From Malacoraja senta (lineage: Eukaryota), in NCBI GenBank assembly GCA_038087875.1, contig CM075989.1, positions 4,526,001-4,590,000 of the forward strand: a DNA stretch of 64,000 nucleotides, given 5' to 3'. Numbering within the stretch: position 1 is the first letter of the stretch; the number at the start of each line of letters is the position of its first letter. The position numbers and the translations under genes were made by a program. Shown piece by piece: positions 10,625-63,819 of the stretch. The notes below the pieces were generated by a model. It was not told the DNA's origin. It worked only from the letters and a program-made list of their open reading frames with translations, and ran no database searches.

Positions 10625-10720
10625 CACAAAAAGCTGGAGTAACTCAGCGGGACAAGCAGCATCTCTGAAGATCTTTCTGAAGAAGGGACTCTACCCGAAA
10701 CGTCACCTATTCCTTCTCTT
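10625..10720. mobile_element. Short fold-back PLE 3'-end element
   Basis: GCTGGAGTAACTCAGCGGGAC arm followed by inverted CTGAAGAAGGGACTCTACCCGAAACGTCACC. Confidence 0.7.
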
Positions 10721-11327
10721 TAAAAATATAACTTGGGTGGATACAACCTCATTGTATTTCAATAAGATATAACATCAAATAATTGGAGCTTGATGGCTAA
10801 ATGTAAAGATCAGTGAAACACCAGGTAATTTCTTTGAGAATGGTAAATTCATTTGCCCCATAATTCATATCACAGCTAATCCAAGGAATAATGATGTTCT
10901 AGTAGATCAATAAACAAAGACTGTACAGAAGCAATTTATCTTTGGATGAATGATTACCATGGATTCAAACCCTCAGATCACAGCATCATAGTGAGAACCA
11001 GTGCATGCAATTATGCGGATGTGAGGAAGTTTCACTGGCAGCTCAGCTATGTGGGCTCTTTCGTGTTATAATTAGTGATTTCATTTCTGAACCCCTGGAG
11101 TTTCCTGGTGGGATTCAGGGGGAAAAAACAAAGTTTCAATTAACAGAATATTACACCATCATTGGATCTTCAATGTTAGGTACTGCCTGATCTTACGTTG
11201 TGTTCTCAAAGGCCAACAATAAAAGGTTTACCCAGGCCAAATACTTAAGTGAATCATTGATCTATATTAGAATCACTTAATTACGTACTAATAACAGAAG
11301 AGTTTACAGATGACAGTGGAGAATTCT

Positions 11328-11430
11328 GAAGAAGGGTCTGAAGAAGGGTTTCGGCCCGAAACGTTGCCTATTTCCTTCGCTCCATAGATGCTGCTGCACC
11401 CGCTGAGTTTCTCCAGCATTTTTGTGTACC
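11328..11430 (+). mobile_element. PLE 3'-end element, subfamily B, with hammerhead core and 12-bp TSD
   Basis: CTGAAGAAGGGTTTCGGCCCGAAACGTT at 11338-11365; GTGGAGAATTCT at 11316-11327 and 11431-11442. Confidence 0.8.
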
Positions 11431-11648
11431 GTGGAGAATTCTTCATTTGGTTTTTGAGTCTTTCCTTGTGATTTCTCCATTCTTACGTTCTCCAAACTTG
11501 CATAGACATTTCTAACCCAGGTAATGGATGGAGCTTTGTAGAGCCAAATAATCATTCAGTATTTGCCAGTGGGAGAGAAAGAGTACAACATCTCCTCATT
11601 AAAACATGGTATCCTTATTCTCTCACACTGTAGCCAAATGACCAATAG

Positions 11649-11957
11649 CTTAGTTTACTTTAACGATACAGCATGGAAATAGGCCCTTAGGCCCATTGAG
11701 TCCACGCTGACCAGCGATCACCCTGTTCACTAGTACTATCTTACACACGAGGAACAATTTGCAATTTTACCGAAGCTAATTGACCTACAAACCTGTACGT
11801 CTTTGGAGTGTGGGAGGAAACCGGAGCCCCTGGAGAAAACACACGCGGTCCTGGGGAGAACAAACAAACTCCATAAGGCAGCACCCGTAGTCAGGATCGA
11901 ACTTGGGTCTCTGGTGCTGTAAGGCAGCAAATCTACCCCTGCGCCACCATGCCACCC
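11649..11957 (-). mobile_element. V-SINE (HE1-like)
   Basis: Complete head, V-domain and tail. Confidence 0.9.
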
Positions 11958-12446: not shown

Positions 12447-12770
12447 TAGTTTATTTTAATTTAGACATAGTGCATGGAAACAGACCCTTTGCCTCACCGA
12501 GTCCGACAGACCATCGATCACCCGTTCACACTAGTTCTATGTTATTCCACTTTCGCATCCATTCCTTACACACCAGGGACAATTTACGCAGGCTAATTAA
12601 TCTGCAAACCCGCACACATCTTTGGATGTGGGAGGAAACCGAAGCACCCGGAGGAAAACCGTGTGGTCACAGGGAGTACGTGTGAACTCAACACGGACGG
12701 CACCCGAGATCAGGATCGAATCCGGGTCCATGTAGTTGTGAGGCAGCAGCTCTACCAGCTGCGCCACCCG
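12447..12770 (-). mobile_element. V-SINE (HE1-like)
   Basis: GGGTGGCGCAGCTGGTAGAG head, GATTCGATCC B-box, V-domain. Confidence 0.85.
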
Positions 12771-13309: not shown

Positions 13310-13757
13310 TAATGAAGTTCAAGTTCCTGGGCATAAATATCACCAACAACTTATCCTGGACGACCATTTTTTGAAGGTGCAGCCATAAAAGTTCACCAAA
13401 ATCTCTATTTCCTCAGGAGACTGAAGGAGGTTTGGCATGTCTCCAGTAACACTGACCCACATCTACAAATGCACCGTAGAATGAATTCTATCAAGTTGCA
13501 TCACATTTTGGTTTGGCAATAGCTCTCCCCAAGGTCACAAGAAATTAACCAGTCCATCACACAGACCAGCCTCCCCACATCATGCCCCCTCTCCTCTATT
13601 GAGTCCATCCACACTTCTGCTGCCTCAGGAAAACAGCAGACATAATCTAGGACCTTTTTCACTGGTTATCTTTGCTGTCAAGCAGAATATACAAAATCTT
13701 AAAGAATGTATCATCAGTTTCAGGAACAGCTTCTTCCCCAATGTTATCAGACTACTG
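13310..13757 (+). mobile_element. Rex1/Babar-clade LINE RT 3' fragment
   Basis: Reads FKFLGINITNNLSW, LYFLRRLK, CTVE.ILSSCIT.WFGN and SFRNSFFPNVIRL across frameshifts. Confidence 0.75.
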
Positions 13758-14850
13758 TATAGGAAGGAACTGCAGATGCAGGTTTAAACCTATGCTGGAC
13801 TAACAGCAGGCCAAACAGCATCTCTAAAGAGAAGGAATGGGTGACGTTTTGGGTCGAGACCCTTCTTCAGACTGATGTCAGAGGAGAGGGAGATACATAG
13901 CTAAGGATGTGTAAGGTGTGAAAATAGGACAAAGGGAATAAAGATCAAGGAAAATGTAGAATAGATCATTGTTAGCTGGGAGAAGGTAACACCAAAGCAA
14001 ACATAGAAACATAGAAACATAGAAAATAGGTGCCTGCACCGCCATTCAATATGATCATGGCTGATCATCCAACTCAGTATCCCGTACCTGCCTTCTCTCC
14101 ATACCCCCTGATCCCTTTAGCCACAAGGGCCACATCTAACTCCCTCTTAAATATAGCCAATGAACTGACCTCAACTACCTTCTGTGGCAGAGAATTCCAG
14201 AGATTCACCACTCTCTGTGTGAAAAATGTTTTTCTCATCTCGGTCCAAAAAGACTTCCCCCCTATCCTCCCCTAACAGAGATAAAATGTAGTCGGAGACA
14301 GTAAGACTGGTCAGAGAACTGGGAAGGAGGAGGGATGGGAAGAGAGGTAAAGCAAGGGTTACTTGAAGTCAGAGAAGTCAATGTTCATACTGCTGGGTTA
14401 TAAGCTGCCCAAGCAAAATATGAGGTGCTGTTCTTCCACAGAAATGTCAGTGTGGAAATGGGAGAGGGAGTTAAAGTGCTTCGCAACCGGGAGATCAGGT
14501 AGGTTTAGACAGACTGAGCGGAGGTCAAATGATCTCCGAGCCTGTGCTTGGTCTCGCCAATATACAAGAGCCCACACCTGGAACAGCGGATACAGTAGAT
14601 GAGGTTGGAGAAGGTGCAAGTGAAACTCTGCCACACCTGAAAAGACTGTCAGGGTCTGTGGATGGAGTCGAGGGAGGAGGTATTGGGACAGGTGTTGCAT
14701 CTCCTGTAATTGCAGGGGAAAGTACCTAGGGAAGAGGTGGTTTGGGCGGGAAGGGACGAGTTGACCAGAGAGTTGTGGAGGGAAGAGTCTCTGCAGAAAG
14801 CGGGAAGGGGTGGAGATGGGAAGATGTGGTTAGTGGTGGAATCCTGTTGG
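13757..14850 (-). mobile_element. Penelope-like element 3' part: GIY-YIG endonuclease remnant + 3' terminal repeat with hammerhead motif
   Basis: Minus strand reads LIYCIRCSRCGLLYIGETKHRL (~14535-14605), then PVAKHFN; it continues into CTGAAGAAGGGTCTCGACCC.AAACGTC (13843-13870) and ends CTGCAGTTCCTTCCTATACA. Confidence 0.85.
14000..14272 (-). mobile_element. CR1 3' fragment with (TTTCTATG)n tail nested in the PLE
   Basis: (ATAGAAAC)n tail; AGAGTGGTGAATCTCTGGAATTCTCTGCC (RVVNLWNSL); the PLE resumes at AACAGAGATAAAATG. Confidence 0.8.
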
Positions 14851-15599: not shown

Positions 15600-15895
15600 A
15601 TTGTTTCGGTTATTTTTTACCACGTGCACTGAGCTACAGTGAAAATTCTGTTTAAGTGCTATCATACTTTCCCTTTGCTTTCAAATCATACTTTACATGA
15701 GTAGAATGAAGTTAAACACACGTAAAATGGGTAGGGCAAAGAGAACAATACCAGAATGCAGAATGCAACATGACAGCATTGTGGTGTTACAGAGTTAAAC
15801 CGGTTGCAGAGAAAGAGACCTCTGTCAGCAATAAAGTAGGTTGGAAGGTCGGGTCTACACCCCAGCTTATGGGAGGATCATTCAGTAGTCTGACA
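15600..15895 (-). mobile_element. Probable Rex1/Babar-like 3' UTR fragment
   Basis: Similar to 38930-39250 (TTTTCACTGTA.CTC.G...GTG..AA end). Confidence 0.45.
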
Positions 15896-16455
15896 ACATT
15901 CCTCTTTGTAGGGTACGTCAAACAGTCCCTGTTCCAGGTGTACACTGACCCTATCCCCGAACGCTACCTCCGCTACTGTTTATTGCTGACTGCATCGGTG
16001 CTACCTCCAGCACCGTGCAGAACTCACTGACCATTAACTTTACTACTAATTTCCATCCTGCACTCAAATTCACTTGGACCATCTCCGACATCTCCCTACT
16101 ATTTCTTGATCTCACCGTCTCCATCACAGGAGACAGACTATCAACTGACATCTATTATAAACCCACTGACTCCCACAGCTATCTAGCCTACACTTCTTCC
16201 CACCCAGCTTCCTTAAAAGACTCCATCCCCTACTCCCAATTCTTCCATCTACACTGTATCTGCACCCAAGATGAGGTGTTCCATACCAGGACATCTAAGA
16301 TGTGCTCGTTCTTTAGGGAACGAGGGTTCACCTCTTCCATCATAGATGAGGCCATCACTAGGGTCTCCTTGATATCCTGCAGCTCCACTCTGGCTCCCCC
16401 TCACCCCATTCGTAACAGAGACAGGGCCCCCCTGGTCTTCACCTTCCATCCCATC
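15896..16455 (+). mobile_element. Penelope-like reverse transcriptase fragment
   Basis: FHPALKFT, FLDLTV, TDIYYKPTDSHSYL, SSHP, SIPYSQF, typical of PLE RT and thumb. Confidence 0.9.
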
Positions 16456-17916: not shown

Positions 17917-18969
17917 AATAAATAAAAATGCTTAAGCTGCATTATTTTTAAATATTTAAAAAATCCAAATTAACAAGCCATTGGAGATTTTGATGAAAAA
18001 TCCTGCGACTATTAAAAATAGTGCTGTTAAACTAATGACCTAACCGTGAGACCTTAAACATTACTGAACCTACCTGAGGTCTCATGGTCATTATCTTCCA
18101 TTAAAATCAAACGGAAATGCCCTTGCACCATTTGGAATGTAAGCACAGATTTTCTGATAACTGATGATAAGGGTGGAGAAATTAGCCCAAAATCCTCCTC
18201 TCAGGCCTAACTCTGAGGCGAACCCAGTGTCGGAGTGCAGCCTTCTGGCTAACCATAAATTGGTGACAGCAATTTCTGGATTTCCGCTTTCAAATTCATA
18301 TGAAGAGAAGTCCCAACGCTGCTGTCAATTCTGCAGGGTAATAATGGTGAATGCTGACAGATTCCCCCATCAATACTTCACAAAATCTGAGCCATTATCT
18401 CTAAAGGCTTGCAATATGATGTGCACTCAGTTTGCCCTACTTATAGGTGAAAGTCCAGCTTTTAGAAAGTGTTGGAATAACTATGATGATACTGAGAGAA
18501 ATAGTTTGCTTTCTCTCTGTTGTAACTAAACGTGCAATCGATTGTCGTGCAAGTATAACTTGAGCAGAAGATCACATATTCAATCACATCAGTTGAAAAT
18601 GCTAAGACTAATATTTTTGTCACAGTTGTTTTCTGTTCTCTAAGTATACGACCAGCTTCAAATCGTTGCCACTCATGAACTGCTTAAGAGTGCAGTACAT
18701 TATGAATTCTGAGCCTGATGCAATGTGAAATATGGCATCACGAAGATTACTTATGTGAAAAAAGATCCGTTTAGATACTTGACATTAAAACGTAATACCT
18801 TCCCTCCACCTTTGTTTCCATAATAATTAAGGGTTAATGGGTTCTTGGTCAGCGTTTTCCATTAAGGTTTTAAACCCCAAGCTTAATCAATTCTAAATCT
18901 CCTACGGTTGCAGGGGAAAGTACTTGGACATAAGAGCTAGTACTCTGAAACAGGCAACTCAATGAACTT

Positions 18970-19167
18970 AAGATAGACACAAAAGGCTGGAGTAACTCAG
19001 TGGAACAGGCAGCACCTCTGGAGAGAAGGAATGGGTGACGCAAGAAGAGTCTCGACCCGAAACGTCACCCATTCCTTCTCTCCAGAGATGCTGCCTGTTC
19101 CACTGAGTTACTCTGAGTTTTTGTGCCTATCTTTGGTTTAAACCAGCATCTGCAGTTCCTTCCTGCA
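18970..19167. mobile_element. Fold-back PLE 3'-end element with 15-bp TSD
   Basis: Inverted arms; CAACTCAATGAACTT at 18955-18969 and 19168-19182. Confidence 0.9.
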
Positions 19168-19805
19168 CAACTCAATGAACTTGGTAGTTCTTGAACTGCT
19201 GTGACCAAGGAAGTGGAAGAGAAGCAAATGGTTCAGCTGTTAATATTATAGGTTCACAGAGTTTGATTTTGATTTTTTTGCTCTGGAAATGAAGTAAAGT
19301 GAGTGAGAATCCAGGATAGTGTAGAAAGCTGCATGTTAGAGTAGGTTTAATGGGGCTGAATAGCATAATATTCTACTGTTCTCCTTTAATTTGGTTCAAT
19401 TGGGGAAGTAAAGAATGTAAGAACCATTCCTGTAGAGAGTAGTTTAACGTAACACAGAATAACTTATACTATTAGTAGTAGAAGTACTATTTAACTTACC
19501 AATAATAGTAAGTTACTTTAACTTTGCTATTGATCCATCAGGGTATATGGTGAATACATTTCCCCCTTTATATTGGGCTTTAAGTTTTGTGTAGTCAATC
19601 AGTTAGATTGAAAGAGTAATGTGAAGAAGCTGGTGACGACAGGGGATCGTGCATCTTTCAAATGGTGAACAAGGAGAATTGAGGAGAGAACGGTAATGAA
19701 ACCAGCACTTTGAAGAATTCCTCAGCTGAGAGTTTTTCAATGTAAATGTGTTTAATATTATCTCACAGCAAATATTCCACATAAAGCCTGGCACGTGATA
19801 AGTGG

Positions 19806-20225
19806 AAGATAGACACAAAAAGCCGGATTAACTCAGCCAAACAGGCAGCATCTCTGGGGAGAAGGAATGGGTGACGTTTCGGGTCGAAACCCTTCTTCAG
19901 ATAAGTGAATACAGGTGAGGAGGTGAGGGGGGGAGGAGGTGAGGGGGGGGGAGGGGGTGAGGGGGGAGTGTTTGGCAGATTATTGGACAAAAGGCTAGAG
20001 ATGAAAAGACGTAAACCAGCATCTGCACCGGTAATCGATGGTCGGTGTGGTCTCGGTGGACCGAAGGGCCTGTTTCCATGCTGTATCTTTCAATCAACGA
20101 AAAACCATATATGTTGTCTTCTGTCCGTGTCACCTGACATGTCTGAAGATCGGTAAAGTCGCCTATGCATGTTCTCCAGAGATGCTGCCTGACTCGCTGA
20201 GTTACTCCAGCACTCTGTCTTTTTT
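19806..20225. mobile_element. Cluster of PLE 3'-end arms plus a V-SINE tail fragment (~20030-20090)
   Basis: Intact minus-strand core at 19873-19900; a second arm at ~20145-20225. Confidence 0.7.
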
Positions 20226-23789: not shown

Positions 23790-23922
23790 ATGGGTGGCTT
23801 TTCGAGTCGAGACCCTTCTTCAGACTTTCCTTTTCTCCAGAGATGCTGCCTGCCCCGCTGAGTTACTCCAGCACGTTGTGTGTATCTTCGGTTTAAACCA
23901 GCATCTGCAGTTCCTTCCTACA
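23790..23922. mobile_element. Fold-back PLE 3'-end element
   Basis: GTCGAGACCCTTCTTCAGACT joined to inverted TCCAGAGATGCTGCC...GCAGTTCCTTCCTACAC. Confidence 0.8.
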
Positions 23923-24752
23923 CAAACCAGTAATTATATTGGGTCAAATTTATTCGGCATTGGAATCGCCCCTCCCTTCAACTCCCTGACCTCACCCATT
24001 ATCAACAAGTAGCTGAGGGATTCATTTACAATAGAATCAATATTTTTCAAAAATCCTCTGAGCACTTTCGGTTGCTAGAGCGGATATGTTAGTTCAGTGA
24101 TTTGCAGCATGGAATCGGGCCCTTCGGCCCACCAAGTCCACGCCGCCCATCGATCACCCGTTCACACTAGTTTAATGTTATCCCACTTTCTCATCCATTC
24201 CTTGTCAGTATCCCAGAGATATAGTGAACTTTTCTGGGCTTAATGATTTGACCGCCAACCAAAGTATAGGTTAGAGATAAATCAGGAGTGTATGAATTGC
24301 CAACAGCGTCCCAAAGCTCATACGATGCCGAGTAATCAGTAATCGAGGCGGATAAATTGTGCAATAGACTGGGTGGACTGTTCTGTGCATTCTGTACTAA
24401 CCGGGGGATTGTGATTATGTACGGGGATATTTTTGCTGAGCTGTATGCAACAAATGTGTACCTGGTACAGGTGACAATAAACAAACGATTGACAACTGAT
24501 GTGCTTGCCTCCGGTGTGGAGAGGGGAATTGAAGGGAGCCTTGGTTTACTCGCTTAAATATGCACGTCGCTGTGATTATGCAGACACCGATTCCAGGCGC
24601 CTTCAGTGGAAGGTTGAAGCCGCCGAAATACTGACACTGCCTACAATGGGCCAGCCGCTAACCAGTACACGACGTCCCGACAGACATCGGGTCGCTGCGT
24701 TAGGCCAGACTCAATAGTTCGTTAATGGGGTCAAGAGCTGGAGGATAATTCT

Positions 24753-25523: not shown

Positions 25524-27426
25524 GGGAACTGCAGATGCTGGTTTAACTCGAAGATAGACACAAAAAGCTGGAGTAATTCAGTCGAACATGCAGCATCTAT
25601 GGAGAAAAGGAATGGGTGACGTTTCGGGTCGGCAAGAAGGGTCTAGACCCGAAACGTCACCTATATATTATAATTAAAGGCTCGGACAAATAAATTCACA
25701 TAGTAAGGATTTGATGTAAGTATATTAGAGTCTTGTGGGAGATTATTTTTTTAATCCACTCTACGCGTGTGTGAATATCTGATGCCTCTGTACTGTAATC
25801 CATATTGAATCCATTCCCCGACACACCTTACTAATGACGTTCTAATTCAGACCGGGTGCGTTAGAGAGAAGGTGCGTTTACATAGCGACTTTCACCACCG
25901 CAGGACAATTCAGAATGCTTTCCACCGAGTGTGATAGGGAGTAGTCGTGCTTACAGTCTAGAAAGGGACGCAAAACGTGATCTACTGGAGGCAGATTTTT
26001 ACTGCGAGAAATTTAAGAAACGCGTTCGCGGGGTGAGGAGGGGGCGTTATCTTTGAATACTTGGATTACTCGTTTAGATTTGCTATTTGAAAGGCAAGAG
26101 TTCGGGGAATATTTTTTTTAAATTGTCGCCTGATTGTTCTAACCTTGAAAAGCGACCATTTCCAGTTTCAGATTGGTAAAATGGTTATCAAATACCATTT
26201 CACTGTACATAACCCGTGGCTGATATTTAGAGTGCATCCATTTATGGTAGATTACCCGAGAGCTTCAAAGCTCTTGAAGTCGTTACATAAATCTCTTGGC
26301 CAAATCCCGGTCGGACTGTTTTATGAAACGATTTGTTTTATCCTTGCATTGCAGTGTGGATGTTGGACGTTATTTCCCAGTTACAGTCTAACCGCGTGGA
26401 CACACATGTCACTTTGTCTCTCCAATGGTTCTAGCGATTACTTCGCTTCAGAGATCGTACAGACATGTCACAACCAACACAACAATTAACTGATGCCTAG
26501 TATTTCGATGCGAACTAGATGGCTTCAGACCGTTCATGTGTCGACTTTTGAACATTAAGTGGAATATTATGGGTGTATTCATTGAAGGAAGGTTGTGGTT
26601 TGGAAGATAGACACAGTAACTCAGCGGGACAGGCAGCATCTCTAGATAGAAGGAACGGGTGACGTTTCAGGTCGAGACCCTTCTTCAGACTTAGAGTCAG
26701 GGGAGAGCGAGACAGACACAAGAAAGTGCAAGGCAAACAGGGTTACCAAACAAATATGCGCGTCAGCCAGATTTCACAATAATACCAAAAGATCCAAATT
26801 CTGTCCGATAAATCTCAGTTATTAAAAAGTGTTTTATATTCTTTGGGAAGTGAAAGAGATAGAGAATAACGTGACAGGTACATACTTCTCTTAAAGCAAG
26901 GGTCAAAGGAACAGTTGGTATATTGTTGCCCTACTTTCTTATATGAATAGTTAATATATCATGAATATAATAATGTAACTAAGCGTGTGGTGATGGAATG
27001 TTCACAGTTTGCTGGATAATACCTAATCGACATTTTGTCATAATCGCACAGTTTATACTGTTGATTTGTTGATGTATATGGAAGAGAGTTGTAATATAGC
27101 CACCTATAGCGTTTATGAGTACATTGCCAAGATTTTTTTCATCTAAACAGATGCTTTTTATTTTAATTACATAGGTTTGGGTTATTTTCCCCAGCGCTGA
27201 ACATTTTAATTTAGATTTCAAATGTTATTCAAGGAGTTGACTTGCGCAATCTGAATTTCATCAAGTCCAGACAGTTAAAGAGCGTCATGTCGATTTGTGG
27301 CAAATGGGCACATGGATCCCATTAAACTCGCAGTTTTCCCGGCAGATTAATAAGGTCGCTCTTTCCCAGCACTGCTCAATGGATGATAAAGGCAGTTCCA
27401 TTTGTAGTCATAACGTCAAAATATCA

Positions 27427-27682
27427 GGTGTGTGGGAAGGAACTGCAGTTGCTGGTTCAAAATCGAAGGTAGACACAAAATGCTGGAGTAACTCAGCGGG
27501 ACAGGCAGCATCTCTGGACAGAAGGAATGGGTGATGTTTCGGGTCGAGACTTTTCTTCAGTCAAAATGCAGTCAAAAATATTCAGACCGGAGGTGGGTCT
27601 CAACCCGAAACATCACCTATTCCTTCTCTCCAATCATGCTGCCTGTCCCGCTCAGTTACGCCAGCGCATTGTGTCTATCTTC
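27427..27682. mobile_element. Fold-back PLE 3'-end element with 14-bp TSD
   Basis: Inverted arms; ACGTCAAAATATCA at 27413-27426 and 27683-27696. Confidence 0.9.
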
Positions 27683-28052
27683 ACGTCAAAATATCACTCA
27701 CGTTGTGTGTTACTAACCCGGAAGAGCCAAAGCAAGAGACGTGGCTCATCACTACACTCAGCCCAATGGTATTTCTACACAGTTCAGGAACGTACACCAA
27801 CACTCGCCGCTGCAGGTCATTGCATCATGTTATATGCAATAGGTCGTAATTCCAGGATGCAAAATATATTTATTTCATGTTTGCCCCTTATGTGTGTACC
27901 TTGTATTCATATACCAATGCATTCCCACAATTCAAGTGGAAATGATTTTAAACTAAATCTTTCCCACTTTCTCTTATGCAGTTGTTTTCTACATTTCAAT
28001 GAGGATTCGTATTAAATGGGCATATTTACTTAGCCAGACCATTTATTTCAAC

Positions 28053-28288
28053 AAAAGATAGACACAGAAAGCTGGATCAGGCAGCATCTCTGGAGAAATG
28101 GAATTTGTGACGTTTCGGGTCGAGTCCCTTTTCCAGACTCCTCAGTCTTTCCTCAGTCTGAAGAAGGATGTCGACCGGAAACATCACATATTCCCTTTCT
28201 CCAGAGATGCTGGCTGACCCGCTGAATTACTCCAGCTTGTTGTGTCTATCTTTGGTTTAAACCAGCATCTGCAGTTCCTTCCTGCACG
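28053..28288. mobile_element. Fold-back PLE 3'-end element with 12-bp TSD
   Basis: Inverted arms; ATTTATTTCAAC at 28041-28052 and 28289-28300. Confidence 0.9.
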
Positions 28289-28634: not shown

Positions 28635-29108
28635 TCTCACTTCAGGTAACCCCGGCATTCCCTCCCTTTCACTCTATCCCTCCCCCCACTCAAGTCGCAC
28701 CAGCTTCTCGTTTTCACCCTACAAACAACTAACAATGGCCTGTTTCCTTTATCATCGTTACTCTTTTGCATATCTTTTATTCATTGTTCTTTATCTCTCC
28801 ACATCATCGTCTATATCTCTCGTTTTTCTTATCCCTAACCAGTCTGAAGAAGGGTCTCGACCAGAAACGTCACACATCCCTTCTCTCCAGAGATGCTGCC
28901 TGTCCCTCTGAGTTACTCAAGCTTTTGTGTCTATCTTGTGTCTAAACCAGCATCTGCAGTTCCTTCCTACACATAAAGCAAATCATTCTCTCGCAAGGCA
29001 GATATAAAGCTCAGTCTGAAGAAAGGTCTCGACCCGAAACGTCACCTATTCCTTCAATCCAGAGATACTGCCTTTCCCGCCGAGTTACTCCAGGATTTTT
29101 GTGTCCAT
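28635..29108 (+). mobile_element. Longer PLE 3' fragment plus a second tandem arm
   Basis: Matches the reverse complement of 13757-14370; hammerhead-like cores at ~28843 and 29016-29043. Confidence 0.8.
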
Positions 29109-30511: not shown

Positions 30512-30882
30512 GCGTCGGAAGGAACTGCAGATTCTAGTTTACACCGAAGATAGACATAAAAAGCTGGAGTAACCCAGCGGGACAGATAGCATCCCTGGAG
30601 AAAAGGAATAGGGGCCTTTTCGGGTCGAGACCCTTCTTCAGACTGGGAGTCAGGGGATAGGGTAACGAGAGATATAGACGGTGACGTAGAGAGATATAGA
30701 ACAAATGAATGAAAGATATGCAAAAAAGTAACAACGATAAAGGAAACGTTAGCTGTTTGCTCGCTGAGAACGAGTACAGACAATGAGACTCAACAAGACG
30801 ACTTGAAGCTGGTACTTGGGTGGGGGAGGGATGGAGAGAGAGAGATTGCAAGGGTTACTTGAGATAAATCAATATTCATACC
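30512..30882 (-). mobile_element. PLE 3' fragment
   Basis: GGAAGGAACTGCAGA...GAGACCCTTCTTCAGACT...GGGTTACTTGAGA..ATCAATATTCATACC. Confidence 0.8.
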
Positions 30883-32404: not shown

Positions 32405-33185
32405 TTAAGGAATGCACGTCAGTAACACATTTCACAATCTCAGGATATTCCAAACTCTTATAGCCAATGAAGTCCATTGGAGCCGAGATGGTAACAGGAC
32501 ATCTAAATTGTGTATGAAGATAGGCACAGAATAACTGGAGTAACTCAGCGGGACAGGCAGCATCTCTGGAGAGAAGAAATGGGTGACGTTTCGGGTCGAG
32601 ACCCAACTTCAGACTGAGTGTGCGGGGAAAGGGAAACAAGAGATATAGGAGGCGATGTAGAGAGATATAGAAGAAATGAATGAAAGATTTACAAAAAAGT
32701 AATGATGATAAAGGAAACAGGGAAATGTTAACTAGGTGAGAACGTGAAGCAGGTGGAGAGAGAAAGAGAATGCAGGGGTTACTTGAAAAGAGAGATATCA
32801 ATATTCATCTCAACTATCTCGACGACACTTCTTTCCGCCCTGCCTCCTGCGAAGACTCTATCCCCTTCTCCCAATTCGTCTACGCTGCATCTGCGCCAAG
32901 ATGAGGCATTCCAGGACATCCGAGATTTCACCGTTGTGCACATCAAACTCCTTCGAAAAAATAATTGGACTTGTTGGGAAAACTACTTGAATGCGGTTGA
33001 TTCGGGAGACAAATATCAGATGGGAAACCCCTGGAAAAATCTCCACCGCTCTTCCCGCGAACACCACCTTGAAATCTTCCATTCCCACCGTAGAGCAGAA
33101 GTTCAAACGACTCTTCCGTCGACCTCCTCTGACTCTGCACTGAAGTGGAATGTCTGACCTGATTTTTATATTCAAATTGGATCTG
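32405..33185 (-). mobile_element. Deu-domain SINE interrupted by a PLE fragment (~32517-32915)
   Basis: TTTCACAATCTCAGGATATTCCAAA..TATAGCCAATGAAGT tail; resumes at CCCCTGGAAAAATCTCCACCGCTCTTC...CTGCACTGAAGTG; the insert includes a PLE RT piece (DSIPFSQFV.LR.IC). Confidence 0.6.
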
Positions 33186-34749: not shown

Positions 34750-35412
34750 TGTACAGGGAGGAACTGCAGATGCCGCTTTACACCAAAGGTAGACACACGA
34801 AGCTGGGGTAACTCAGCGGGTGAGGCAGCATCTCTGGAGAAAAGGAATAGGTGACGTTTCGGGTCGAGACCCTTCTTCAGACGCAAGATGGGTCTCGACC
34901 CAAAACTCTTCGGACTGAGAGGCAATGGAAAGGGGAAACGAGAGATATAGATGCTACTTAGGATCAATGAATGGAAGAAATGCAGAAAGTAAAACAATCA
35001 AGGACATGTGGAGGCCACAATGGCCCATTGTTGGCTACAGGATAGGTGATAACAGGTTACACAAACAGTGGTACTCAACTGGACGACCCTAAGTATTGTC
35101 TTTATCCCTCGCTCCCCTTTCCCCTGACTCTCAGACCAGATGCCACATCTTACTCCAGAACGAGTGACCAACAGCAACAACAAAAACACATGGGACTTCT
35201 CTGCTCCCAATGACAGATCAATACAATTTTACTTTTCAAAGTTCTTCAAGATCGCAACAGGGCGTTTGAAGATGGAATCTTTTGAAGAAGGGTCCCGACC
35301 CAAAACGTCACATATTCCTTTTCTCCCGAGGTGCTGCCTGGCCCGCTGAGTTACACCAGCACTTGGTGTCTATCTTTGGTATAAACAAGCATGTGCAGTT
35401 CATTCCTACACG
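34750..35412. mobile_element. PLE 3'-end arms
   Basis: Intact minus-strand hammerhead core at 34853-34880; opposite arm at ~35282-35412. Confidence 0.8.
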
Positions 35413-44935: not shown

Positions 44936-45120
44936 CTTAGATCCCCCCTCCCCCCCCCCCTCCCCAACTATGGGAACTATATTTTCCTCAACGTGCTTTC
45001 ACCATATTGCATGCCCCTTAACCCGTTAGGCGCCGAGGCGGTGGTTTCTTGCAGTTGAATAGAAACAAAGGGCTCAAGACCTCCAGTAAAACGAACAAGT
45101 GATTCTGGACTAGACAATAG

Positions 45121-45271
45121 TCCAGAAGGGACTGAAGAAGTCTGAAGAAGGGTCTCGACCCGAAACGTCACCCATTCCTTCTCTCCAGAGATGCTGCCTG
45201 TCTCGCTGAGTTACTCCAGCATTTTGTGTCTATCTTCGGTGTAAACCTGCATCTGCACCTCCTTCCTAAAC
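45121..45271 (+). mobile_element. PLE 3'-end element with 12-bp TSD
   Basis: ACTAGACAATAG at 45109-45120 and 45272-45283. Confidence 0.9.
45142..45169 (+). ncRNA. Minimal type-I hammerhead ribozyme motif (PLE-type), representative copy
   Basis: CTGAAGA-A-GGGTC-TC-GACCC-GAAA-C-GTC: CUGANGA and GAAA boxes, stem II, GUC triplet; stem I only ~2 bp (GT/AC). Confidence 0.7.
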
Positions 45272-47015
45272 ACTAGACAATAGCATGAACAGTATCATCA
45301 GCTCGCAGCCCAACGTATCATTCAACTCGCGTGAAATCTTAACCTTGAAATTAACTCTTTAATTTACTTTAGTCATTGCCCATTATCAGGGTGTTCGTTT
45401 TATAATTTAAATATATACATTTTACCTCAGCTGATCAGTATCCTGCCTAATAAATACTGATCACCACTGCCTCTTGTTATTTCCTACAAAATGGACGGTA
45501 AGCATCGGGGTAAGTTACACCTGCCACCCTCCTCTTTGTGGCTGTGGGCCAACTTGAACAGTGTAGGTTTAGAGTATGCCTTCTGAATAGCCCCACTTAT
45601 TACACTTAAAAATGCATCGCTCTATATTCTTAATTACATTTGGGACTTGCAAGCAGAAGCATAAACCATTCAAATTTTAATAACCACACGAGTTATCAAT
45701 AATAGGCGCCAAGACCGAAAGGAATTGGTAAGTCTTTACCGTTTCGGGGAGGTTGCGTCGTGTGATCATTTCAAAATATTTCGTTACTCTATTCTCCACT
45801 TCTTTAAAGTTATTGCCCCAGATATTCGGACGAAGGTATGGCAATGAAAGCCTTCAAAGTGTATTTGCAAGAGGGGCCAGGTGGAGTCACCTGGGGTCAG
45901 ATGTCATTGACCGTTTCTGTCCATTGGGCTCGGCCTCGATGTACCTGGAATGCTGAAGGTTTACGAATGGAGAATGTCCAGGCTACACTGGAAACGCATG
46001 GCCCATTGTTCTGATGCTTCATTATCTGGATACAGTATTGAAGAAACTGGAAATATCGATACAGTCGGGTGGGACTTCCAAAATTGGTAAATACAAATCA
46101 CAGAATGGAACTTAAAACAATTAGATGAAAATAGATTATGCATTTTGCAAACCATGCATATATGATGAGATTTGGTTTAGTTATGTTTAGCGTCGTGTGT
46201 ACCGAGGTACAGTGAAAAGCTTTTTGATGTGCGCTGGCCAGTCAGCGGAAAGACGAGACATGATTACGATCGCCCAGTGTACAGATACAGGATAAAGGGA
46301 ATGACGTAAAGTGCAAGATAAAGTCCAGAGATGTTATCTCTTCTTACCATTAATGCCGAAAGCACTAGATTCATATATAATTATATTAGATCATCGTTAA
46401 TAGATATAAATTAAAGCTGAAATGGCAGAAGAAACCAGCAGCAACGAAAAGCATTGTTGTTTAGGACTGAATATTCGTGTTGCTACTTTCTCGACAATCC
46501 TAATTTCCCTTTGGCAGTAAAATGAGTTCCAAACAACTTCAAATTATAAGCAAGAAACTGAACTAACGTTGAAAATTGAAAATAATTGTTGGCTTTTTTG
46601 ACATTGATAGATTCGTGAATCATTTAAAAAGCTGCAATATTTTATTTTAGGTAAAATAATCGTCATCTGCTAACCTGTAGCAAGGAAACTAAAAGGCGAA
46701 TGTGATTAAAAGCAGCCCACCGAACACCTTTTGACCATTAAGATGTGCCCATTAACATGAGTTCCCAATGGGTTTTATTGAGGACCATTTATTTCCAACC
46801 AAATCAAACGTTACACAATGCCATTTGGCTTAAGAAGGCTTCAGATTGCTCCACAGTTAGAATATCTCCCCCTTTCACCATTCCCCACTCCCACACCATC
46901 TTAACACCCCTATCACTCACCCCACCAACCCGCATTCACATACACAAACATACACACGCATTTCAAATAGAGGCAGAACACCACATCAGAACATCCACAT
47001 CAGAACAATTTGAAG

Positions 47016-47207
47016 GAAGGAACTGCAGATGCTGGTATACACCGAAGATAGACCTAAGTGCTGGAGTAACTCAGCGGGGCAGGCAGCATCTCTGGAGAGA
47101 AGGAATGGGTCTGAAGAAGGGTCTCGACCAGGAAAATTAACCTATTCCTTCTCCCCAGAAATGCTGCCTGTCCGGCTGAGTTACTCCAGCATTTTGTGTC
47201 TATCCTA
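47016..47207. mobile_element. Fold-back PLE 3'-end element with 9-bp TSD
   Basis: Inverted arms; AATTTGAAG at 47007-47015 and 47208-47216. Confidence 0.8.
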
Positions 47208-49079
47208 AATTTGAAGACCAGCCCACCGAACTGAAGTTGACGATAGACACAAAAAGCTGGAGTAATTCAGCGGGTCAACTAACATCTCTGGAGAAAAAGA
47301 ATAGGCGACGTTTCGGGTCGAAGACGCTTCTTAAAGTTGAATGTCTCCCTCGAGATCTACGTGCAATTTTTTCATTGAAATATACTGGGGGATATCAGGA
47401 CCAATCAGATTGCCTCGTTGGACTTGATAGGTTTAATGCCTCGCTGTATCTTAACACGAAGCACAATGCGATTTGAAGCTGAAAATCATATCATCAATTA
47501 ACAGGATATTACTGTTGTCAATAATCCTCAAAAACCACATGGGCCGGATCCAAGAGTTGGGAGGTGTGGATCGGTTAACCAACTCTCTCTCCCTCATTGT
47601 ATAATTCCACACAAAGACCAGAAATAGTTCATTCCCCGGATGACTGGGTGATGAATGAGCGTTTAAAATCAATGCGTAGTTAATTTCAAAGCATATTGGA
47701 AATATTTATCGATTTATATTTTTTTGAAAAAGGTGGAGATGTTACCCCGCCGATTATATTGGCAACTATGTGGGGTTATTTTTTTTACACACACATACAC
47801 ACACTTGTTTTCTGAATCTAGCGGCTCAGCTTCCGCAGCGCCATCTTACTAACGTCGGTAAATATTCCGGTCACGTAAATATTCCAAGAAGGCGAATCTC
47901 CAAGAATGTGATTAATATTAAAGTAACGAAGGAATAGGGGAAGGAAGCAAAAATGCAAGCCCTGCCAGACACTTGCACGAAATCGACCTGGGCATCAGTT
48001 ACGATGGAATTTACCGACCTTTGGTCTGTTTTGGAGGTTGGGCTATGATTGCGGTATTATCGCTCGGTGAACTCACGTGGTAGCATATCGTACTGCATTA
48101 TCTGGGTAAAATTACATCTAACAATGGAGTGTGTGCTGCTTAAAAATACCAAACAGCGTTGAGCGACACTTTTCACTCATATATTTATTCCGTTGCGCAA
48201 GCGTTTGGGCACCCCGTTTCAATCTGGTAGATTCGCATTGGGAAATTGGAGTTGAAAACTGCACCGTAATACTAAAATGGCCGGCTCTAAATTAATCACT
48301 TCTCGCCGTCTGCCCCTCGGGTCGAAGATATCTCAATGGCGACGCGGCATCATATTCCTCCCGCCTGACTTTGGGCAGAAATGAGTGGACCAGACCCCAT
48401 CCAACCAATCCGACAGATTCACTGGACAGCGCTACAAAGGGTATCTCACATCAAGCTCAGTCATTCGTCCAGTTACCTCTAGGTTCCTGGAGCTTCAATG
48501 CATTTTTAGAGTCCACCCCTCACTTATGATAGTCTTAGTTGAGAATTCCTTCCAACAGCTTAATCTGGATAGATCATAGAACGGTACAGCACAAGAAGCC
48601 CTTCAGCTCACAATGTCTCTGCCGAACATGATGCTAAGGCCATCATTTATCTTCCATCCATCTATCTGTCCGTAGCTTAAATAGCTGCACCTAACCCATA
48701 TCCTTCAATTCACTCGTAGCTTTGATTCATTCTCACCCCCCTCTCCCTCCATTCCATTCACTCACAACCCATACCCCGCTTCCTCGCTCATGTTACGGCA
48801 TCTCTCCAATCCCTTCATGCAGAAAGCGATGCCAAAAAAAATCGCAAAACATGCGGTATCAATACATTGGAGACACAAGAGACAGCAGATGCTGGAATTT
48901 TCAGCGAAAAAAAAAGTTAAATGTTGGAGGAACTCAGCAGGTCAGGCAGCATCTTTGGAGGGAAATGAACAAACTATGTTTCGGGTCGAGCCCCTTCTTC
49001 CGTTCCTCCAGCAGTTTGGTCTTTTTTTGTGCTTATCGTCAACATATTGCAGTGTGTTAGTGTCTAACTAAGAAGCGCA

Positions 49080-52909: not shown

Positions 52910-53442
52910 AACTTCAGGCAGCCCTTGCATCCTCTCTCTCCCCGACCCCCCCCCACCCCCTAGTCGTCGTACTAGTTTCCTTGTGTAGGAAGGAACTGCA
53001 GATGCTGGTTTATACCGAAGATAGACACAAAATGCTGGAGTAACTCAGCGGGACAGGCAGCATCTCTGGATAGAAGAAATGGGTGACGTTTCAGGTCGAG
53101 ATCCTTCTTCAGACTGTTTCACTGTCGTCCTTGCTGAGTTTCACTCGTTGTCACCTTTCCCACAGCCAACATTGGACCATTGTGGGCTCCACCTTTCCCT
53201 GATCGTCGTTGCTGGCTTTGATCTGTCTTTTTGCATATCTTTCATTCATTTGTTCTAGGTACCCTTCCATACCTCTAGTTTTTCTCTCCTCTGACTCTCA
53301 GTCAGAAGAAGGGTCTCGACTCTAAAACGTCATCAATTCGTTTTTTAACAGAGATGCTGCCTGACCCGCTGAGTCACTATAGCATTTTAGTGTCTATCTT
53401 CGGTGTAAACCACCAGCATCTATCTGCAGTTTCCGTCATACA
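52910..53442. mobile_element. PLE 3' fragment (+) with a second arm (-, ~52983-53115) nested in it
   Basis: AGTTTCC|TTGTGTAGGAAGGAACTGCAG...CTTCAGACT|GTTTCACTGTCG. Confidence 0.75.
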
Positions 53443-54604: not shown

Positions 54605-54739
54605 TCTGAAGAAGGGTTTCGACCCGAAACGTTGCCTATTTCCTTCGCTCCATAGATGCTGCTGCACCCGCTGAGTTTCTCCAGCATTTTTGTGTACCTT
54701 CGATTTTCCAGCATCTGCAGTTCCTTCTTTAACACAGTG
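54605..54739 (+). mobile_element. PLE 3'-end element, subfamily B, with ~10-bp TSD
   Basis: Core at 54606-54633; CAAAACATTT at 54595-54604 and 54740-54749. Confidence 0.8.
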
Positions 54740-58064: not shown

Positions 58065-58262
58065 GTCGAAACAAAGAACAGCAGATGCCGGTTTACGCCA
58101 AAGACAGACACAATCTATTGGTGTAATTCAGTGGGTCAGGCAGCATCTCCGGAGAAAAAGGATGGGTGACGTTTCAGTCTGAAGAAGGGTCTCGATCCGA
58201 AACGTCACCCATTCTTTTTATCCAGAGATGCGGCCTGACCAGCTGAGCTACTCCAGTGTCTA
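58065..58262. mobile_element. Fold-back PLE 3'-end element
   Basis: Hammerhead core at 58179-58206, at the apex between inverted arms. Confidence 0.8.
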
Positions 58263-59420: not shown

Positions 59421-60427
59421 ACATTGGGTTAAGTGCGACATTCATGTTTTTAGCAACGGTGTGGAGTATTAATATACCGACCTCGAGTGGTTGACTTATG
59501 ACGAAAAATAATTTACGTTTTGATTTCAAAGTGTTTCACTCATTGTTGTATGACATTTCATTGCTTGGCTTCATTATTGTCCATTGAGGGCAGTTGAGAT
59601 ACACCTCAAAGACTGCAAATAAAATAATCCAAATCCAAAGAAAACTAGACTTCACAAAACAGAAGAAAAAAGGCACATTAACCGTGTGATATTTTCACAA
59701 ATAGGAAATGAACTACAGAGGAAGCCCCCTTTTAAATCGAAAATCGAAAATCTAACTAAACTTGATGTTAAATAAAACTTCAGTTACCCCCATTGACCTG
59801 CACCTGCACTTATTGTCTATTGTCTATTGTCTATTGACCAGGGCAGCAATGTCCGAACAGCTTGGAATAAGGAAGCTATAGTTATGATCAGGCGACCCAA
59901 ATGTTATTTATATAGAGGCACAATATACGACGGGCGGAACATTTAAGGGTTATTCATTAACTTGTAAAATAACTTCTTAAATTCATTTATGAATTTTGAT
60001 CCAATTCGCAGTTTTGATTACCAAATATGACTTACTCCTGTTTTATGCTTAATGCCAATTTAAAATATGTTGAGCAATGCAAAGTGTAATATATCATTTA
60101 TCAAAATAGCTATCGTTTCCGAAGACGAAACTGAGCTAATCGGTGAATTATCTGAAAATGCACCTTTGCTATATAAGTAAAGCTATTTTGAGTAGTAGAT
60201 ATTAGGTCTTAGTGGTGTTTAATCGGTCTTGTCCAAAGATGTAATATACTAGAAGACATGTAATGGGACGAGGTGTGTGCAGTAACACATATTTGCAATA
60301 ACAATTATTTCTATAATTTCCCCTAGTGATTTTATCTTTGTAATAAAAAACAAATATATGGAAACTTTTGAAAATAAAAACTTTTGAAGTTCTTTCTGTT
60401 CCCATTAGAACATTAAACCTGTTCTCC

Positions 60428-60520
60428 ATGAAGAAGGGTCTCGACCCGAAACGTCGCCTATTTCCTTCGCTCCATAGATGCTGCCTCACCCGCTGAGTTT
60501 CTCCAGCATCTTTGTCTACC
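60428..60520 (+). mobile_element. PLE 3'-end element, subfamily B
   Basis: TGAAGAAGGGTCTCGACCCGAAACGTCGCCTATTTCCTTCGCTCCATAGATG. Confidence 0.75.
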
Positions 60521-61756
60521 TCCCTTTCGATATAATTGAATGATAACGAATCTCTCCATCAAACACCTCGACCGTTCGCCGAGCAGAACTGCCAACCCAA
60601 CCCAATTAGCAATTCAGAGTTAATTGCAAGAGATTTCATATAATAGCCACTGGGGCTGACGGAAGTTCAGTCGTGTCAGACGTTTACAACTTCCTCTTCC
60701 CCTAAGAGGAAGCCCTTAATCTCCAGCGTATTTCTGCAAGAAATGTATATACAGAATAGTCCAAAAATAACAGCGAGAGACGAAGGTTAAGCAGAACCAG
60801 GAATTTATTGGGTGATTATTACAGATAGCCTCAACAAGAATTCAATATTTAACCAAATACACATCATATTACACACAATGAATGTAGTCATTAAATAAGT
60901 ACAAATTGTGCATATTCCTCGAGAATTTATGAAACGGTCCATTGATCAGTAAATCCCAGGATTGAGCCTTTCCATGTATCGTTTCTAGCACCAGGCCAAC
61001 ATTTCGTCAAAACCTCATATAAAACATCAAACTATTGTAATTCATGCTTCAAATATTCTTAATCTGCTGAACCCTTCCTTACCCTGTGTGTGAAGTATTG
61101 CAGCAAAAGATAACCACAAAATATGCACACACTCGTATACACCAAGCCACATTTCCTCACACAAAAAACATTATCTTAACGTGATAATTCCCAGACATCG
61201 GTTGCCACTCTGCATTGTTAATTACACCATAAAATTAGTATTTTACTCGTGCAAGCGTGTGAAGGAATTAAGATTACAAACACACGAACAAATTAAGACT
61301 TCCTTCAGAATTGGGAAGTAAAATTAAATCATAAACTGAGGAAAATATAAACGATATCTCGATATCGATAACCGATGCATTTACTCGAAGATATAAAGAT
61401 ACCGCCCTTTTTAATTCTTGCCTAATTAGTAGTCATTTATTGATACCATTATAAAAATTATCTCCCAAATATTATCAGGGTAGTCTAACTGTTAATTTGT
61501 TCTTTATTTGATTATACCTCAGGAATCCAATTTAATTGAGAACCGGTGTCTTTCAAGACGAATGAGACCAACGCAGAATTTAAAATCAGTTTAAAATAGA
61601 AATCTGTTAATATTTAGTTCTTCTTTAATATTCATTCATCTTCGAGGTACACATATCGAGAGTGATCACAGATTTCAAACTCATTCACCCTTCGAAGGTA
61701 AATGGGAGTTGAAGAGGCAGTGGAGACTAGCGCAGAGAACGCAGATGTCCATATCG

Positions 61757-62278
61757 TGTAGGAAGGAACTGCAAATGCTGGTTTAAACCGAAGATAGGCA
61801 CAAAATGCCGAGGTAACTCAGCGGGACAGGCAGTATCTATGGAGGAAAGGAACAGGTGATGTTTCGGATCGACACCCTTTTTTAGACTGGGTCTCGACCC
61901 GAAACATCACCTATTCCTTCTCTCCAGAGATGCTGTTTGACCCGCTGAGTTACTCCAGCTATTTACGGATGTTCATATTCTCTCGAGTTCAAAGCACCCT
62001 CGCACAGCTAGGGGAGGGCGTTTATTTTTGTGGGGGTGGGAAAGAGGATCGAAATGGGAGGGGGGTGGGGGTGTTGTTATGCGGGGAAATGCTAACCCCA
62101 GTCAGTCCATATCATGTGAGAAAATGTTCATTCGTCAACATGGTGTCCGTCACAACAGTCTGAAGAAGGGTCTCGACCCATACTTTCTCTCCAGAGATGC
62201 TGCCTGTCCAGCTGAGTTACTCCAGCATTTTGTGTCTATCTTCGGTTTAAACCAGCATCTGCATTTCCTTGCTACACA
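61757..62278. mobile_element. Fold-back PLE element (61757-61960) and a further arm (62157-62278)
   Basis: Same family sequence as the other arms. Confidence 0.8.
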
Positions 62279-63819
62279 AGAACATGGCGACTGTTTTACA
62301 GTCCCGTCTGTGTCGACGTAAATGATGCAATGGATCCCGAGATATAAAGCACGTTGAGCTTACTGACTCTTTGATCCGACTTTCAAAACAAGCTCGATCA
62401 TGCCCCACCCATACAGCAGCCGTACCCAGGGGTTGGTTCCTCCATTGGGATCATCAGCTAATTGCAAGCTTCCAGGTGCTTCCAAAATTAACTGGATTTG
62501 TGCACGTTTCAACATTCTTTTTCTTAACAGGAAAATCAAAGAGATGATTACCCTGTCCTAATACAACGAAGAAATGATTCTATATAGTTTTTTTAATAAA
62601 GTCATTATCTATAATTTAGTTCTGTAATTTCACAGATGGTGGAGTGACACTGATTTAAGATGCTTACTTTAAACCAATTTCACCTACATTAATCAATTTT
62701 GTTTTTCACCAAGATGTTCTTAAAAATAACAGGGGATGTTTTTAAATAATTTTCTAAAGAGCACATCTTAAAATTGCCCCAGTTCATGACAGGTTAAACG
62801 TGAGTGGATTTATAAATGGATCAGGGTGGGGTGGTGAAAAGGTTCTCGCGGTTAAATTGGACGCAAATTTGGACATACTTTCTACCAGAGTCGCTGTTTG
62901 CGCTCAAAAAGTATATTTTACATTGGAGAATTGAACTATCGGCCATATTAACAGCCAACATAAATTGGGAGCTTGTTATAAGCCACGCCTGACTACCCAT
63001 AGCTATTTACGAAGGAAGGAACTGCAGATGCTGGTTTACACCGTAGACACAAAATGTTGGAGTAACTTAGCGGGACAAGCATTATCACTGGAGAAAAGGA
63101 ATATTGTTTCAATTTATTAGTTCAATTTTTTTTTACAAGGATAAAATCACTAGGGGCAATTATACAAACAGAAACGCACGCACCTCATCCCATACATATT
63201 TACTACTATATCATTTTTTTGGGCGACTGATTAAGCATCACAAGACAATTCCTTCAATCCAGAGATACTGCCTATCCCGCTGAGTTACTCCAGAGTCTAT
63301 CTTCGGCCATACCAATTTATAGCAGATTAAAAGTTAGCATCAGTATCTAAAAAAATCTCAAAGCATACTCAATTCATGTCATGTATCTCAATTCATATTT
63401 AAAATGAACGTCTATGGAGGTTGTTCCGAAATTCATCCACGCCAATCGGAGATCGAAAAATACAAATAGGAACTTCTCTTCCATTAGACATTGCTTTGGC
63501 CCGAATATCATGTCCTTTTCTGTGTCTTTTGGTGCGAATGCATGGTCTGACCATTTCCAAATCAGCCCATCATACACACAAATCTTTGTTCGCTCGTCTG
63601 TACAATCGATGCATCTCATCCGACGGTGGAAAATAAAAATTGAGGAGAAGTAACTCGTGACAATAGTAATAAAGTACAAAGTGACTGAAAGTCGAGGTTC
63701 TTCCCTAACGAAGTTCCATGGCCAAAAATCAATATTACCGGCCATATGCTTCAAGTCTTCATCAAATTATCTCTGACCAATGGACCTAAAAGGCAAAGTC
63801 TGGTAATCCATTCCAACTT

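Follow-up and report, generated by a model that had tools for sequence, protein, structure and literature searches.

Introduction

Metazoan Penelope-like elements (PLEs) carry minimal hammerhead ribozymes in their terminal repeats, and these motifs occur mostly singly (Cervera and de la Peña 2014, PMC4209133; here and throughout, statements on cited papers refer to the parts of each available to us). The available text of PMC4209133 gives no evidence for in vivo cleavage by these minimal hammerheads, and PMC8557442 calls their function unclear. Here we analyse a 64,000-nucleotide stretch of the Malacoraja senta genome (GCA_038087875.1, contig CM075989.1, positions 4,526,001–4,590,000 of the forward strand; hereafter, the window), which contains many copies, termed arms, of a short sequence with such a hammerhead core. 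Our analysis identifies the arm as the terminal module of an autonomous PLE, assigned by motif to the Neptune type, and indicates that solo and inverted arms are probably run-off complementary DNAs (cDNAs) of that module.

The arms resemble the hammerheads of PMC4209133 in their core, in an extra base between positions 9 and 10.1, in the G10.1–C11.1 pair, and in a palindromic, loopless stem III; as there, the motif is present in both terminal repeats, is mostly single and dispersed ("probably related to truncated PLEs"), and also forms opposite-strand pairs. They differ in number (an extrapolated ~100,000 strict cores, as against 2,000–9,000 per genome), in having a 2-pair stem I and a discrete 5′ end before the core, and in a minor class of copies that starts at the cut site. 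The available part of PMC4209133 makes no mention of cartilaginous fishes. As in the Anolis Poseidon element PAc (Frangieh et al. 2024, PMC11167929), two internal reverse transcriptase (RT) start sites past the hammerhead would define a tail, and the main template would be uncleaved RNA. Unlike in PAc, the linker is of the Neptune type, and the hammerhead lies in the 5′ untranslated region (UTR), with the ATG at +163, rather than over the start codon; apparent solo run-off insertions and cut-site ends, found here, are not described for PAc in the available text. With Neptune-clade insertions (Craig et al. 2021, PMC8557442; Arkhipova et al. 2013, PMC3846280) the copies share 5′ truncation, partial tandems, an inverted upstream copy, a 30–40-bp tail at one end, head-to-head palindromes, and the CX2-5CxxC linker by which PMC8557442 defines the Neptune type, but most copies here are reduced to the terminal module alone. 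With non-LTR (LTR, long terminal repeat) retrozymes (Cervera and de la Peña 2020, PMC7229834; Li et al. 2026, 10.64898/2026.07.22.740005) they share an origin in Penelope terminal repeats, and a few arrays, with 254–384-base units each containing a core, fit the tandem definition; in contrast to retrozymes, the window arms are dispersed, solo or head-to-head, and their hammerhead is minimal rather than canonical.

As far as the available texts go, the 2014 paper already covers the motif, its location in Penelope repeats, and the prevalence of solo copies; the 2024 paper, the tail and internal priming; and the 2026 preprint, the Penelope origin of retrozymes. The arms are real and very abundant; they belong to a known kind of element, whose amplification here takes a variant form, and they offer a lead on ribozyme activity. 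In the literature searched we found neither the run-off reading nor the cut-site class, no paper joining "strong-stop" and "pLTR" for Penelope, and no paper on the arm family in cartilaginous fishes; the supplements of PMC4209133 and the 2026 preprint may list the family.

Arms and hammerhead cores in the window and the genome

Arm positions are counted from 0 at the first C of CUGANGA; hammerhead geometry puts the cut after +27 (GUC or GUU), and the predicted 3′ cleavage product begins at +28. BLAST searches with four natural copies as queries (matches of at least 25 bases) revealed 62 arm segments in the window, covering 5,451 bp (8.5%). The core region is reached by 40 of the 62, matching the "roughly 40" arms of the original prediction, which a model had made from the sequence alone; 18 are solo, 14 lie in head-to-head pairs, and 8 continue into upstream element UTR. 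A strict core descriptor (CUGANGA, one extra base, a 4-bp stem II, and GAAA-CG-UH) finds seven cores in the window and none in 50 mononucleotide shuffles: the six that had been named as intact, each recovered in position and strand, and a seventh (Table 1). The description of the arms as the dominant repeat was compared with only two other families, a tRNA-type short interspersed nuclear element (SINE), which we take to be HE1-like (17 segments, 3,319 bp), and one 3′ piece of a long interspersed nuclear element (LINE; 5 segments, 1,050 bp). Rfam hammerhead models gave no match in the window at E ≤ 1 and none on two young copies at E ≤ 10, and the Rfam tRNA model matched no window arm.

Genome-wide searches were performed on assembly G000 (1.94 Gb). 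An unbiased sample, consisting of 80 evenly spaced 10-kb stretches from the 20 largest contigs (with small contigs outside the sample), contains 351 arms, which make up 3.8% of its sequence and extrapolate to ~0.85 million arms (0.71–1.0) and ~100,000 strict cores in the genome. Exact 28-base cores number 19,101 for a younger variant (B) and 18,728 for an older variant (A), with 0 for reversed controls. The central part of the young arm has 32,742 exact matches, the UTR just before the arm has 7,364, and the arm-into-open-reading-frame (ORF) junction has only 474. Most copies do stand alone, as had been proposed: endonuclease sequence lies within 400 bases of only 18 of the 351 unbiased arms.

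The parent element

The endonuclease remnant of the window (Table 1) has at least 10,899 candidate relatives in the genome. At 27 of 30 loci picked by endonuclease DNA, an arm lies downstream of the endonuclease on the same strand, and the UTR between the two in these 27 is pyrimidine-rich and mostly 85–230 bases long. The N-terminal region, used as a query, retrieved 5,734 candidates, with frames of up to 1020 amino acids (aa). At long-frame loci, an arm follows the ORF in 20 of 20 and also precedes it in three (L066, L071, and L076); the upstream arm is the 5′ UTR of the full-length element. Near-intact copies encode RT and GIY-YIG in a single frame of 803–1020 aa and have the arm in both repeats. 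In particular, the 1020-aa frame of L067 matches RVT_1 (E=6e-6) and GIY-YIG (E=1e-3), both under Pfam's cut-off. The N-terminal 430–517 aa of ORFs among the near-intact young full-length copies L061–L080 gave no Pfam match, and 731 aa of the element ORF gave 0 matches at E ≤ 1 in a PDB sequence search. The protein contains DKG, YIDD, a CX4CX2C linker, and GIY-YIG, and is therefore Neptune-type by motif; a CX2-5CxxC linker between RT and endonuclease is present in all four frames examined and in the window remnant. The insertions have the Penelope pattern of partial-tandem repeats, an inverted upstream copy, and an optional 30–40-bp tail; specifically, the direct terminal repeats of L071 are ~620 bp long and 98% alike, and the repeat of L073 is inverted.

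The parent is, by these sequence motifs, an autonomous, endonuclease-positive Neptune-type PLE, and the arm is both its 3′ end and its 5′ UTR, which upholds the assignment of the motif to the terminal repeat of a PLE. The original prediction had also placed one window arm directly downstream of the GIY-YIG remnant, on the same strand. Order and strand hold, but immediate adjacency does not, a ~250-base LINE-like piece splitting the intervening UTR; the description would be right only with this piece set aside. This piece, presumably CR1-like, has an 8-base repeat tail and sits inserted in the element UTR. Many copies are frameshifted near the N-terminus, and among L061–L080 a frame change in a C-run that precedes the conserved region recurs in many; it is either an assembly error or a real feature.

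Ends and anatomy of the copies

We called 5′ ends against a 79-copy UTR library with a random-flank control. Among 413 unbiased arms, those that extend to the core region number 270 (solo, 128; head-to-head, 98; with at least 20 bases of UTR, 44), and the other 143, which start further inside the arm or near a stretch edge, lie outside the 5′-end count. Among the 270, 129 begin at −6 to 0 (18 per base), 27 at −19 to −7, and 15 at −50 to −20; the density of ends upstream, from −20 to −300, is 0.06–0.5 per base, with about 0.06–0.1 per base beyond −50. A further 70 start at +1 to +12, in part through alignment trimming, which is seen in the control too. With 129 of 270 ends at −6 to 0, the copies do not form a continuous truncation series. 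The same position recurs in a young set of 165 copies pooled from all loci and enriched by the searches for coding-linked ones: 40 of its 42 solo arms start at −6 to 0, 25 of the 42 have 8–21-bp target duplications (median 12), and several young arms open with a stutter of their own first bases. The 42 solos gave no clear sign of an additional G derived from a cap. An initiator-like YCAGT at −5 to −1 is shared by subfamilies whose UTRs differ, and Penelope promoters are known to contain initiators (PMC2377424, PMC3846280).

The 3′ ends of the 413 arms fall into two groups ~35 bases apart, with 142 at +85 to +102, 160 at +118 or later, and 25 between. The difference is Penelope's optional tail, which in Anolis Poseidon reflects two internal sites of RT initiation. 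The 74 inverted pairs have 69 junction types, carry the tail on one arm only in 55 cases and duplications of at least 8 bp in 23, and are miniature versions of the known Penelope insertion structure; a miniature inverted-repeat transposable element is rejected for them on account of the 69 junction types and the unequal ends.

A three-part tandem (L305, G000:C1:247043249-247045000) lies inside one target duplication; its units begin again at −4, preceded by differing letters that look untemplated, and the structure resembles repeated template jumps. The arm is also represented in four presumed-RNA contig sets, with ends that scatter loosely around −6 to −3, +84 to +93, and +128; we did not use them as evidence, because a contig does not reveal where an RNA starts and these may derive from genomic copies transcribed passively.

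Probable run-off copies of the terminal module

We consider it likely that the solo and inverted arms are run-off cDNAs of the terminal module of the autonomous Neptune-type element, that is, of the minimal hammerhead and the 65–100 bases that follow it. RT would initiate internally, at either of two sites (about +92–95 or +125–131), on an RNA whose 5′ end would lie 1–6 bases before the core, and the enzyme would fall off after about 95–135 bases. An RNA starting just before the core puts the start sites 95–135 bases from its 5′ end, and priming there would therefore yield a solo arm. The RNA 5′ end would be a transcription start at the YCAGT, and the donor RNA would be the element mRNA or a transcript of any copy with a terminal repeat. 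At the template end the enzyme may stutter, jump, or fold back, producing short repeats, partial tandems, and head-to-head pairs. Since most cDNAs contain the core, uncut RNA would be the main template, as in Anolis. Run-off of this kind would explain why these ribozyme motifs mostly occur single and dispersed, and how ~4% of a vertebrate genome could come from the 5′ UTR of one element without a separate SINE.

Haplotypes were compared over 92 columns in 160 young copies (75 UTR-linked, 40 solo, and 45 inverted). The three commonest are common to UTR-linked, solo, and inverted copies, and among the top 20 no solo-only haplotype has more than one copy. In addition, 65 arm-into-ORF copies (67 rows minus two duplicates; three rows had been chosen earlier for long frames) comprise 21 with a long upstream repeat, 8 that start at −200 to −31, 13 at −8 to +2, and 23 spread over +3 to +125. 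The 13 starts at −8 to +2, set against the 23 spread downstream (P about 3e-7), show that ORF-bearing templates end where solos end. The proposal that the ribozyme-bearing end has amplified as a SINE- or retrozyme-like unit is not supported: solo and coding-linked copies share their commonest haplotypes, inverted forms are independent, ORF-continuing copies share the 5′ start, and dispersed arms are not tandem. Like SINEs, the arms have defined ends and target duplications; lineages of their own, distinct from the autonomous partner, were not seen among the 160 young copies, a comparison of low power. Head-to-tail units each with a hammerhead, as in retrozymes, are absent among the window arms, which are solo, head-to-head, or UTR-linked, and for lack of any tandem arrangement we reject a dispersed-retrozyme reading of them. 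The original prediction had posed a choice between truncated copies in a continuous length series and a separate non-autonomous family. The series is not continuous, but the separate family does not follow, the third case of discrete by-products having been omitted. We favour discrete by-products of the autonomous element, because haplotypes are shared, there is no single inverted master, and ORF-linked copies have the same 5′ end. Copies that keep a terminal repeat could donate such RNAs too, as non-autonomous donors in a loose sense.

A separate SINE-like, non-autonomous family, in which solos with their own internal promoter are transcribed and recopied by the enzyme of the element, would account for the fixed size, the sharp 5′ end, the target duplications, and the large excess over coding copies, and Penelope promoters can be internal (PMC2377424). 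We nevertheless regard it as unlikely, given that no solo-specific haplotype appears among the 160 young copies, that 27 of the 42 young solos, with starts at −2 or later, have no initiator-like bases, that about half have no tail, and that ORF-linked copies have the same 5′ end. It is quite unlikely that the arms reflect ordinary 5′ truncation from the element 3′ end, with a hotspot made by fold-back of new cDNA on the short palindrome that precedes the core or by a stall at the pyrimidine-rich UTR and with no RNA end involved. Such a hotspot would fit the commonest inverted junction, which folds back perfectly around this palindrome (4 of 45 young pairs), the thin continuous tail of longer copies (44 of 270), and the many arms cut within the arm, but inversion-free solos with clean duplications end at the same place, and the stutters and the jumps restarting at −4 to −1 (L305, L315) suit a template end better than a stall. 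Processing of the RNA at a splice acceptor (a pyrimidine tract and a CAG ending at −2), comparable to the Drosophila Penelope intron that ends at helix I (PMC4209133), has that precedent, a context kept across subfamilies with different UTRs, and the peak of ends at −1/−2 in its favour; we hold it to be highly improbable, as no shared upstream exon was seen among solos, duplications abut the arm, and 15 of 42 young solos reach −3 or beyond with unspliced bases.

Several points weigh against run-off from a defined RNA end. The position of that end is inferred from genomic copies. The 5′ ends spread across −6 to 0, peaking at −1/−2, with no single base. The near-palindrome at −5 to +3 could itself cause fold-back, and the bases around the arm start also resemble a splice acceptor. 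Recent solo masters would escape notice, because the haplotype comparison spans only 92 columns and 160 young copies.

The hammerhead fold and possible traces of cleavage

The core matches the minimal type I Penelope hammerhead, with CUGANGA, GAAA, a UH site, an extra base before G10.1–C11.1, and stem II, as had been read from the window. Stem II is paired in 86–92% of 606 copies, and stem III, a palindromic loopless ACGU likewise anticipated, keeps its outer pair in 95% of 590. Helix I comprises 2 pairs, a 2×2 mismatch, and then 2 possible pairs, and is not formed in minimum-energy folds; helix I of minimal hammerheads has 4–5 pairs in Schistosoma and 2 pairs in a Drosophila variant. Subfamily changes among the 606 copies are located in loop II (+12 and +13), at +16 (U-A to U-G), at +27 (C or U), and at +28 (A or G, both of which pair with U at −1), and, as judged from sequence, are compatible with the hammerhead fold; across the 606 copies no changes on both sides of one hammerhead pair were seen. 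The hammerhead is predicted to be mostly unfolded, would need a second copy or the element protein, and would cut a small share of RNA after +27; the cut RNAs would give rise to a minor class of copies and to tandem arrays starting at +28.

Two arrays found without selection for unit start bear on this. In one (L225–L235, G000:C1:27817328-27818736), 11 units of 138 bases, without the core, restart exactly at +28; in the other (L324, C1:381271264-381271787), 4 units of 165 bases, also without the core, restart at +27/28 with one shared base. A 122-base array (L381–L383, C2:122472022-122472295), again without the core, restarts at +29, and L350 and L358 are single ORF-to-+28 junctions. The chance of two ORF-to-arm junctions of 13 falling in the +27/28 slot is ~0.005, for a hand-made list in which L221 and L224 are unverified. 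Searching the genome with patterns for young copies that end at +27, +28, +29, and +30 returned 106, 205, 57, and 16 matches, respectively; hand removal of inversions and internal deletions left 6 of 30, 9 of 30, 2 events in 30, and 7 events in 16. Corrected for pattern stringency and chance extension, the estimated numbers of 5′ ends (solo or ORF-jump) are ~0 at +27, 207 (101–343) at +28, 15 at +29, and 36 at +30.

A number of results speak against reading these ends as products of cleavage. The +28 peak comes from small counts classified by hand, and its pattern admits two letters; among 146 unselected young copies, 3 end at +28, against 3–6 at each neighbouring base, and +28 is not the start of any of the 65 ORF-linked copies. 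The test in the older subfamily, run without a baseline, is confounded by a repeated 4-base word: of the 30 apparent +28 ends there, 24 are inversions or microhomology deletions. The +28 class could also stem from pausing at the base of a structure, or from arrays growing at the DNA level. The core is not significantly better conserved than its flanks (variable columns, 1 of 11 against 15 of 62; p=0.44), and in genomic copies decay is as fast within the core as it is downstream (non-CpG, 6.9% versus 5.8%). Stem I has only 2 pairs, and minimum-energy folds bury the core in other helices that are 4–10 kcal/mol better than the hammerhead. In Anolis, according to the available text, the cut site was not the start of any read, and insertion in vitro did not depend on cleavage (PMC11167929).

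On balance, the minor +28 peak and the two tandem arrays are a possible fossil of in vivo cleavage, and we lean slightly towards a hammerhead that occasionally cleaves in vivo. More tentatively, the family may constitute a fossil RNA map, in which close to a million run-off cDNAs mark a transcription start and two internal priming sites, and the +28 class and arrays record germ-line cleavage and the retrotransposition of circularised cut RNAs. If true, such a map shows the step by which retrozymes are born. The copy number lets the counting of insertion ends across the assembly settle whether minimal Penelope hammerheads cleave in vivo.

Three further head-to-tail arrays comprise 13 units of 384 bases (L236–L248, G000:C1:28902541-28907177), 10 units of 275 bases (L306, C1:256829077-256831585), and 3 units of 254 bases (L303, C1:231191670-231192206). 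Each unit contains the UTR end, an intact hammerhead core, the arm, and the ORF start; these arrays fit the tandem definition of retrozymes, and they look newly formed.

Other features of the window

Table 1. Arms and associated element sequences in the window (positions within the 64,000-nucleotide stretch; a dot marks features with arms on both strands)
Feature	Position	Strand	Details
Head-to-head pair of partial arms	10625..10719	.	+40..+86 inverted, 0..+42 direct
Young solo arm 11338-11430, no tail	11316..11442	+	Strict core 11338-11365; short 5′ stutter of own start; 12-bp target duplication 11316-11327, 11431-11442
Tailed arm, 3′ end of truncated Penelope-like copy	13756..13870	-	Core mutated (G12 to A)
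3′ UTR of truncated Penelope-like copy	13871..14364	-	LINE-like 3′ piece inside, at about 14000-14275
Frameshifted remnant, CX4CX2C linker and GIY-YIG endonuclease	14365..14849	-	69% and 51% identity to near-intact copy
Separate RT fragment, same element family	15869..16452	+	58-69% identity
Head-to-head pair	18965..19169	.	Only + arm tailed
Tailless solo arm	19805..19900	-	Strict core 19873-19900
Arm with first 33 bases inverted	23790..23924	.	
Head-to-head pair	25526..25664	.	
Arm with 28 bases of upstream UTR	26615..26716	-	Seventh strict core 26661-26688
Head-to-head pair	27429..27683	.	Only - arm tailed
Head-to-head pair	28046..28282	.	Only + arm tailed
Arm with about 224 bases of upstream element sequence	28844..28973	+	Ordinary 5′-truncated copy
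Arm with upstream element sequence	30514..30641	-	As 28844-28973
Arm with upstream element sequence	32515..32612	-	As 28844-28973
Tailed solo arm	34756..34880	-	Strict core 34853-34880
Arm with upstream element sequence	37128..37256	-	As 28844-28973
Tailed solo arm 45142-45272	45109..45284	+	Strict core 45142-45169; 5′ stutter and 12-bp flanking duplication, read from sequence
Head-to-head pair	47015..47222	.	- arm begins at +28
Arm with upstream element sequence	53305..53415	+	As 28844-28973
Young tailed solo arm	54606..54735	+	Strict core 54606-54633; 10-bp target duplication
Head-to-head pair	58073..58256	.	Strict core 58179-58206
Head-to-head pair	61756..61964	.	Only - arm tailed
Last two partial arms	63014..63293	.	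63014-63103(-) and 63248-63293(+)

The RT fragment lies ~1 kb from the endonuclease remnant, on the opposite strand, and is possibly its inverted partner. Sites of the tRNA-type SINE include 11655-11960, 12460-12770, and 12955-13260, and an Rfam tRNA match at 14918-14991(−) is weak (27.5 bits versus a cut-off of 29).

Three head-to-head pairs (18991-19111, 47069-47182, and 58144-58230) have long-hairpin folds and weak scores with microRNA models. We rejected a microRNA identity for the Rfam matches of the window, which are inverted pairs and score far below the gathering scores; hairpin-forming pairs of this kind could be misannotated as microRNAs or supply double-stranded RNA. Elsewhere in the genome, an arm recurs every ~2.0–2.5 kb within larger tandem repeats (G000:C1:3870339-3892452 and 4008171-4030216).

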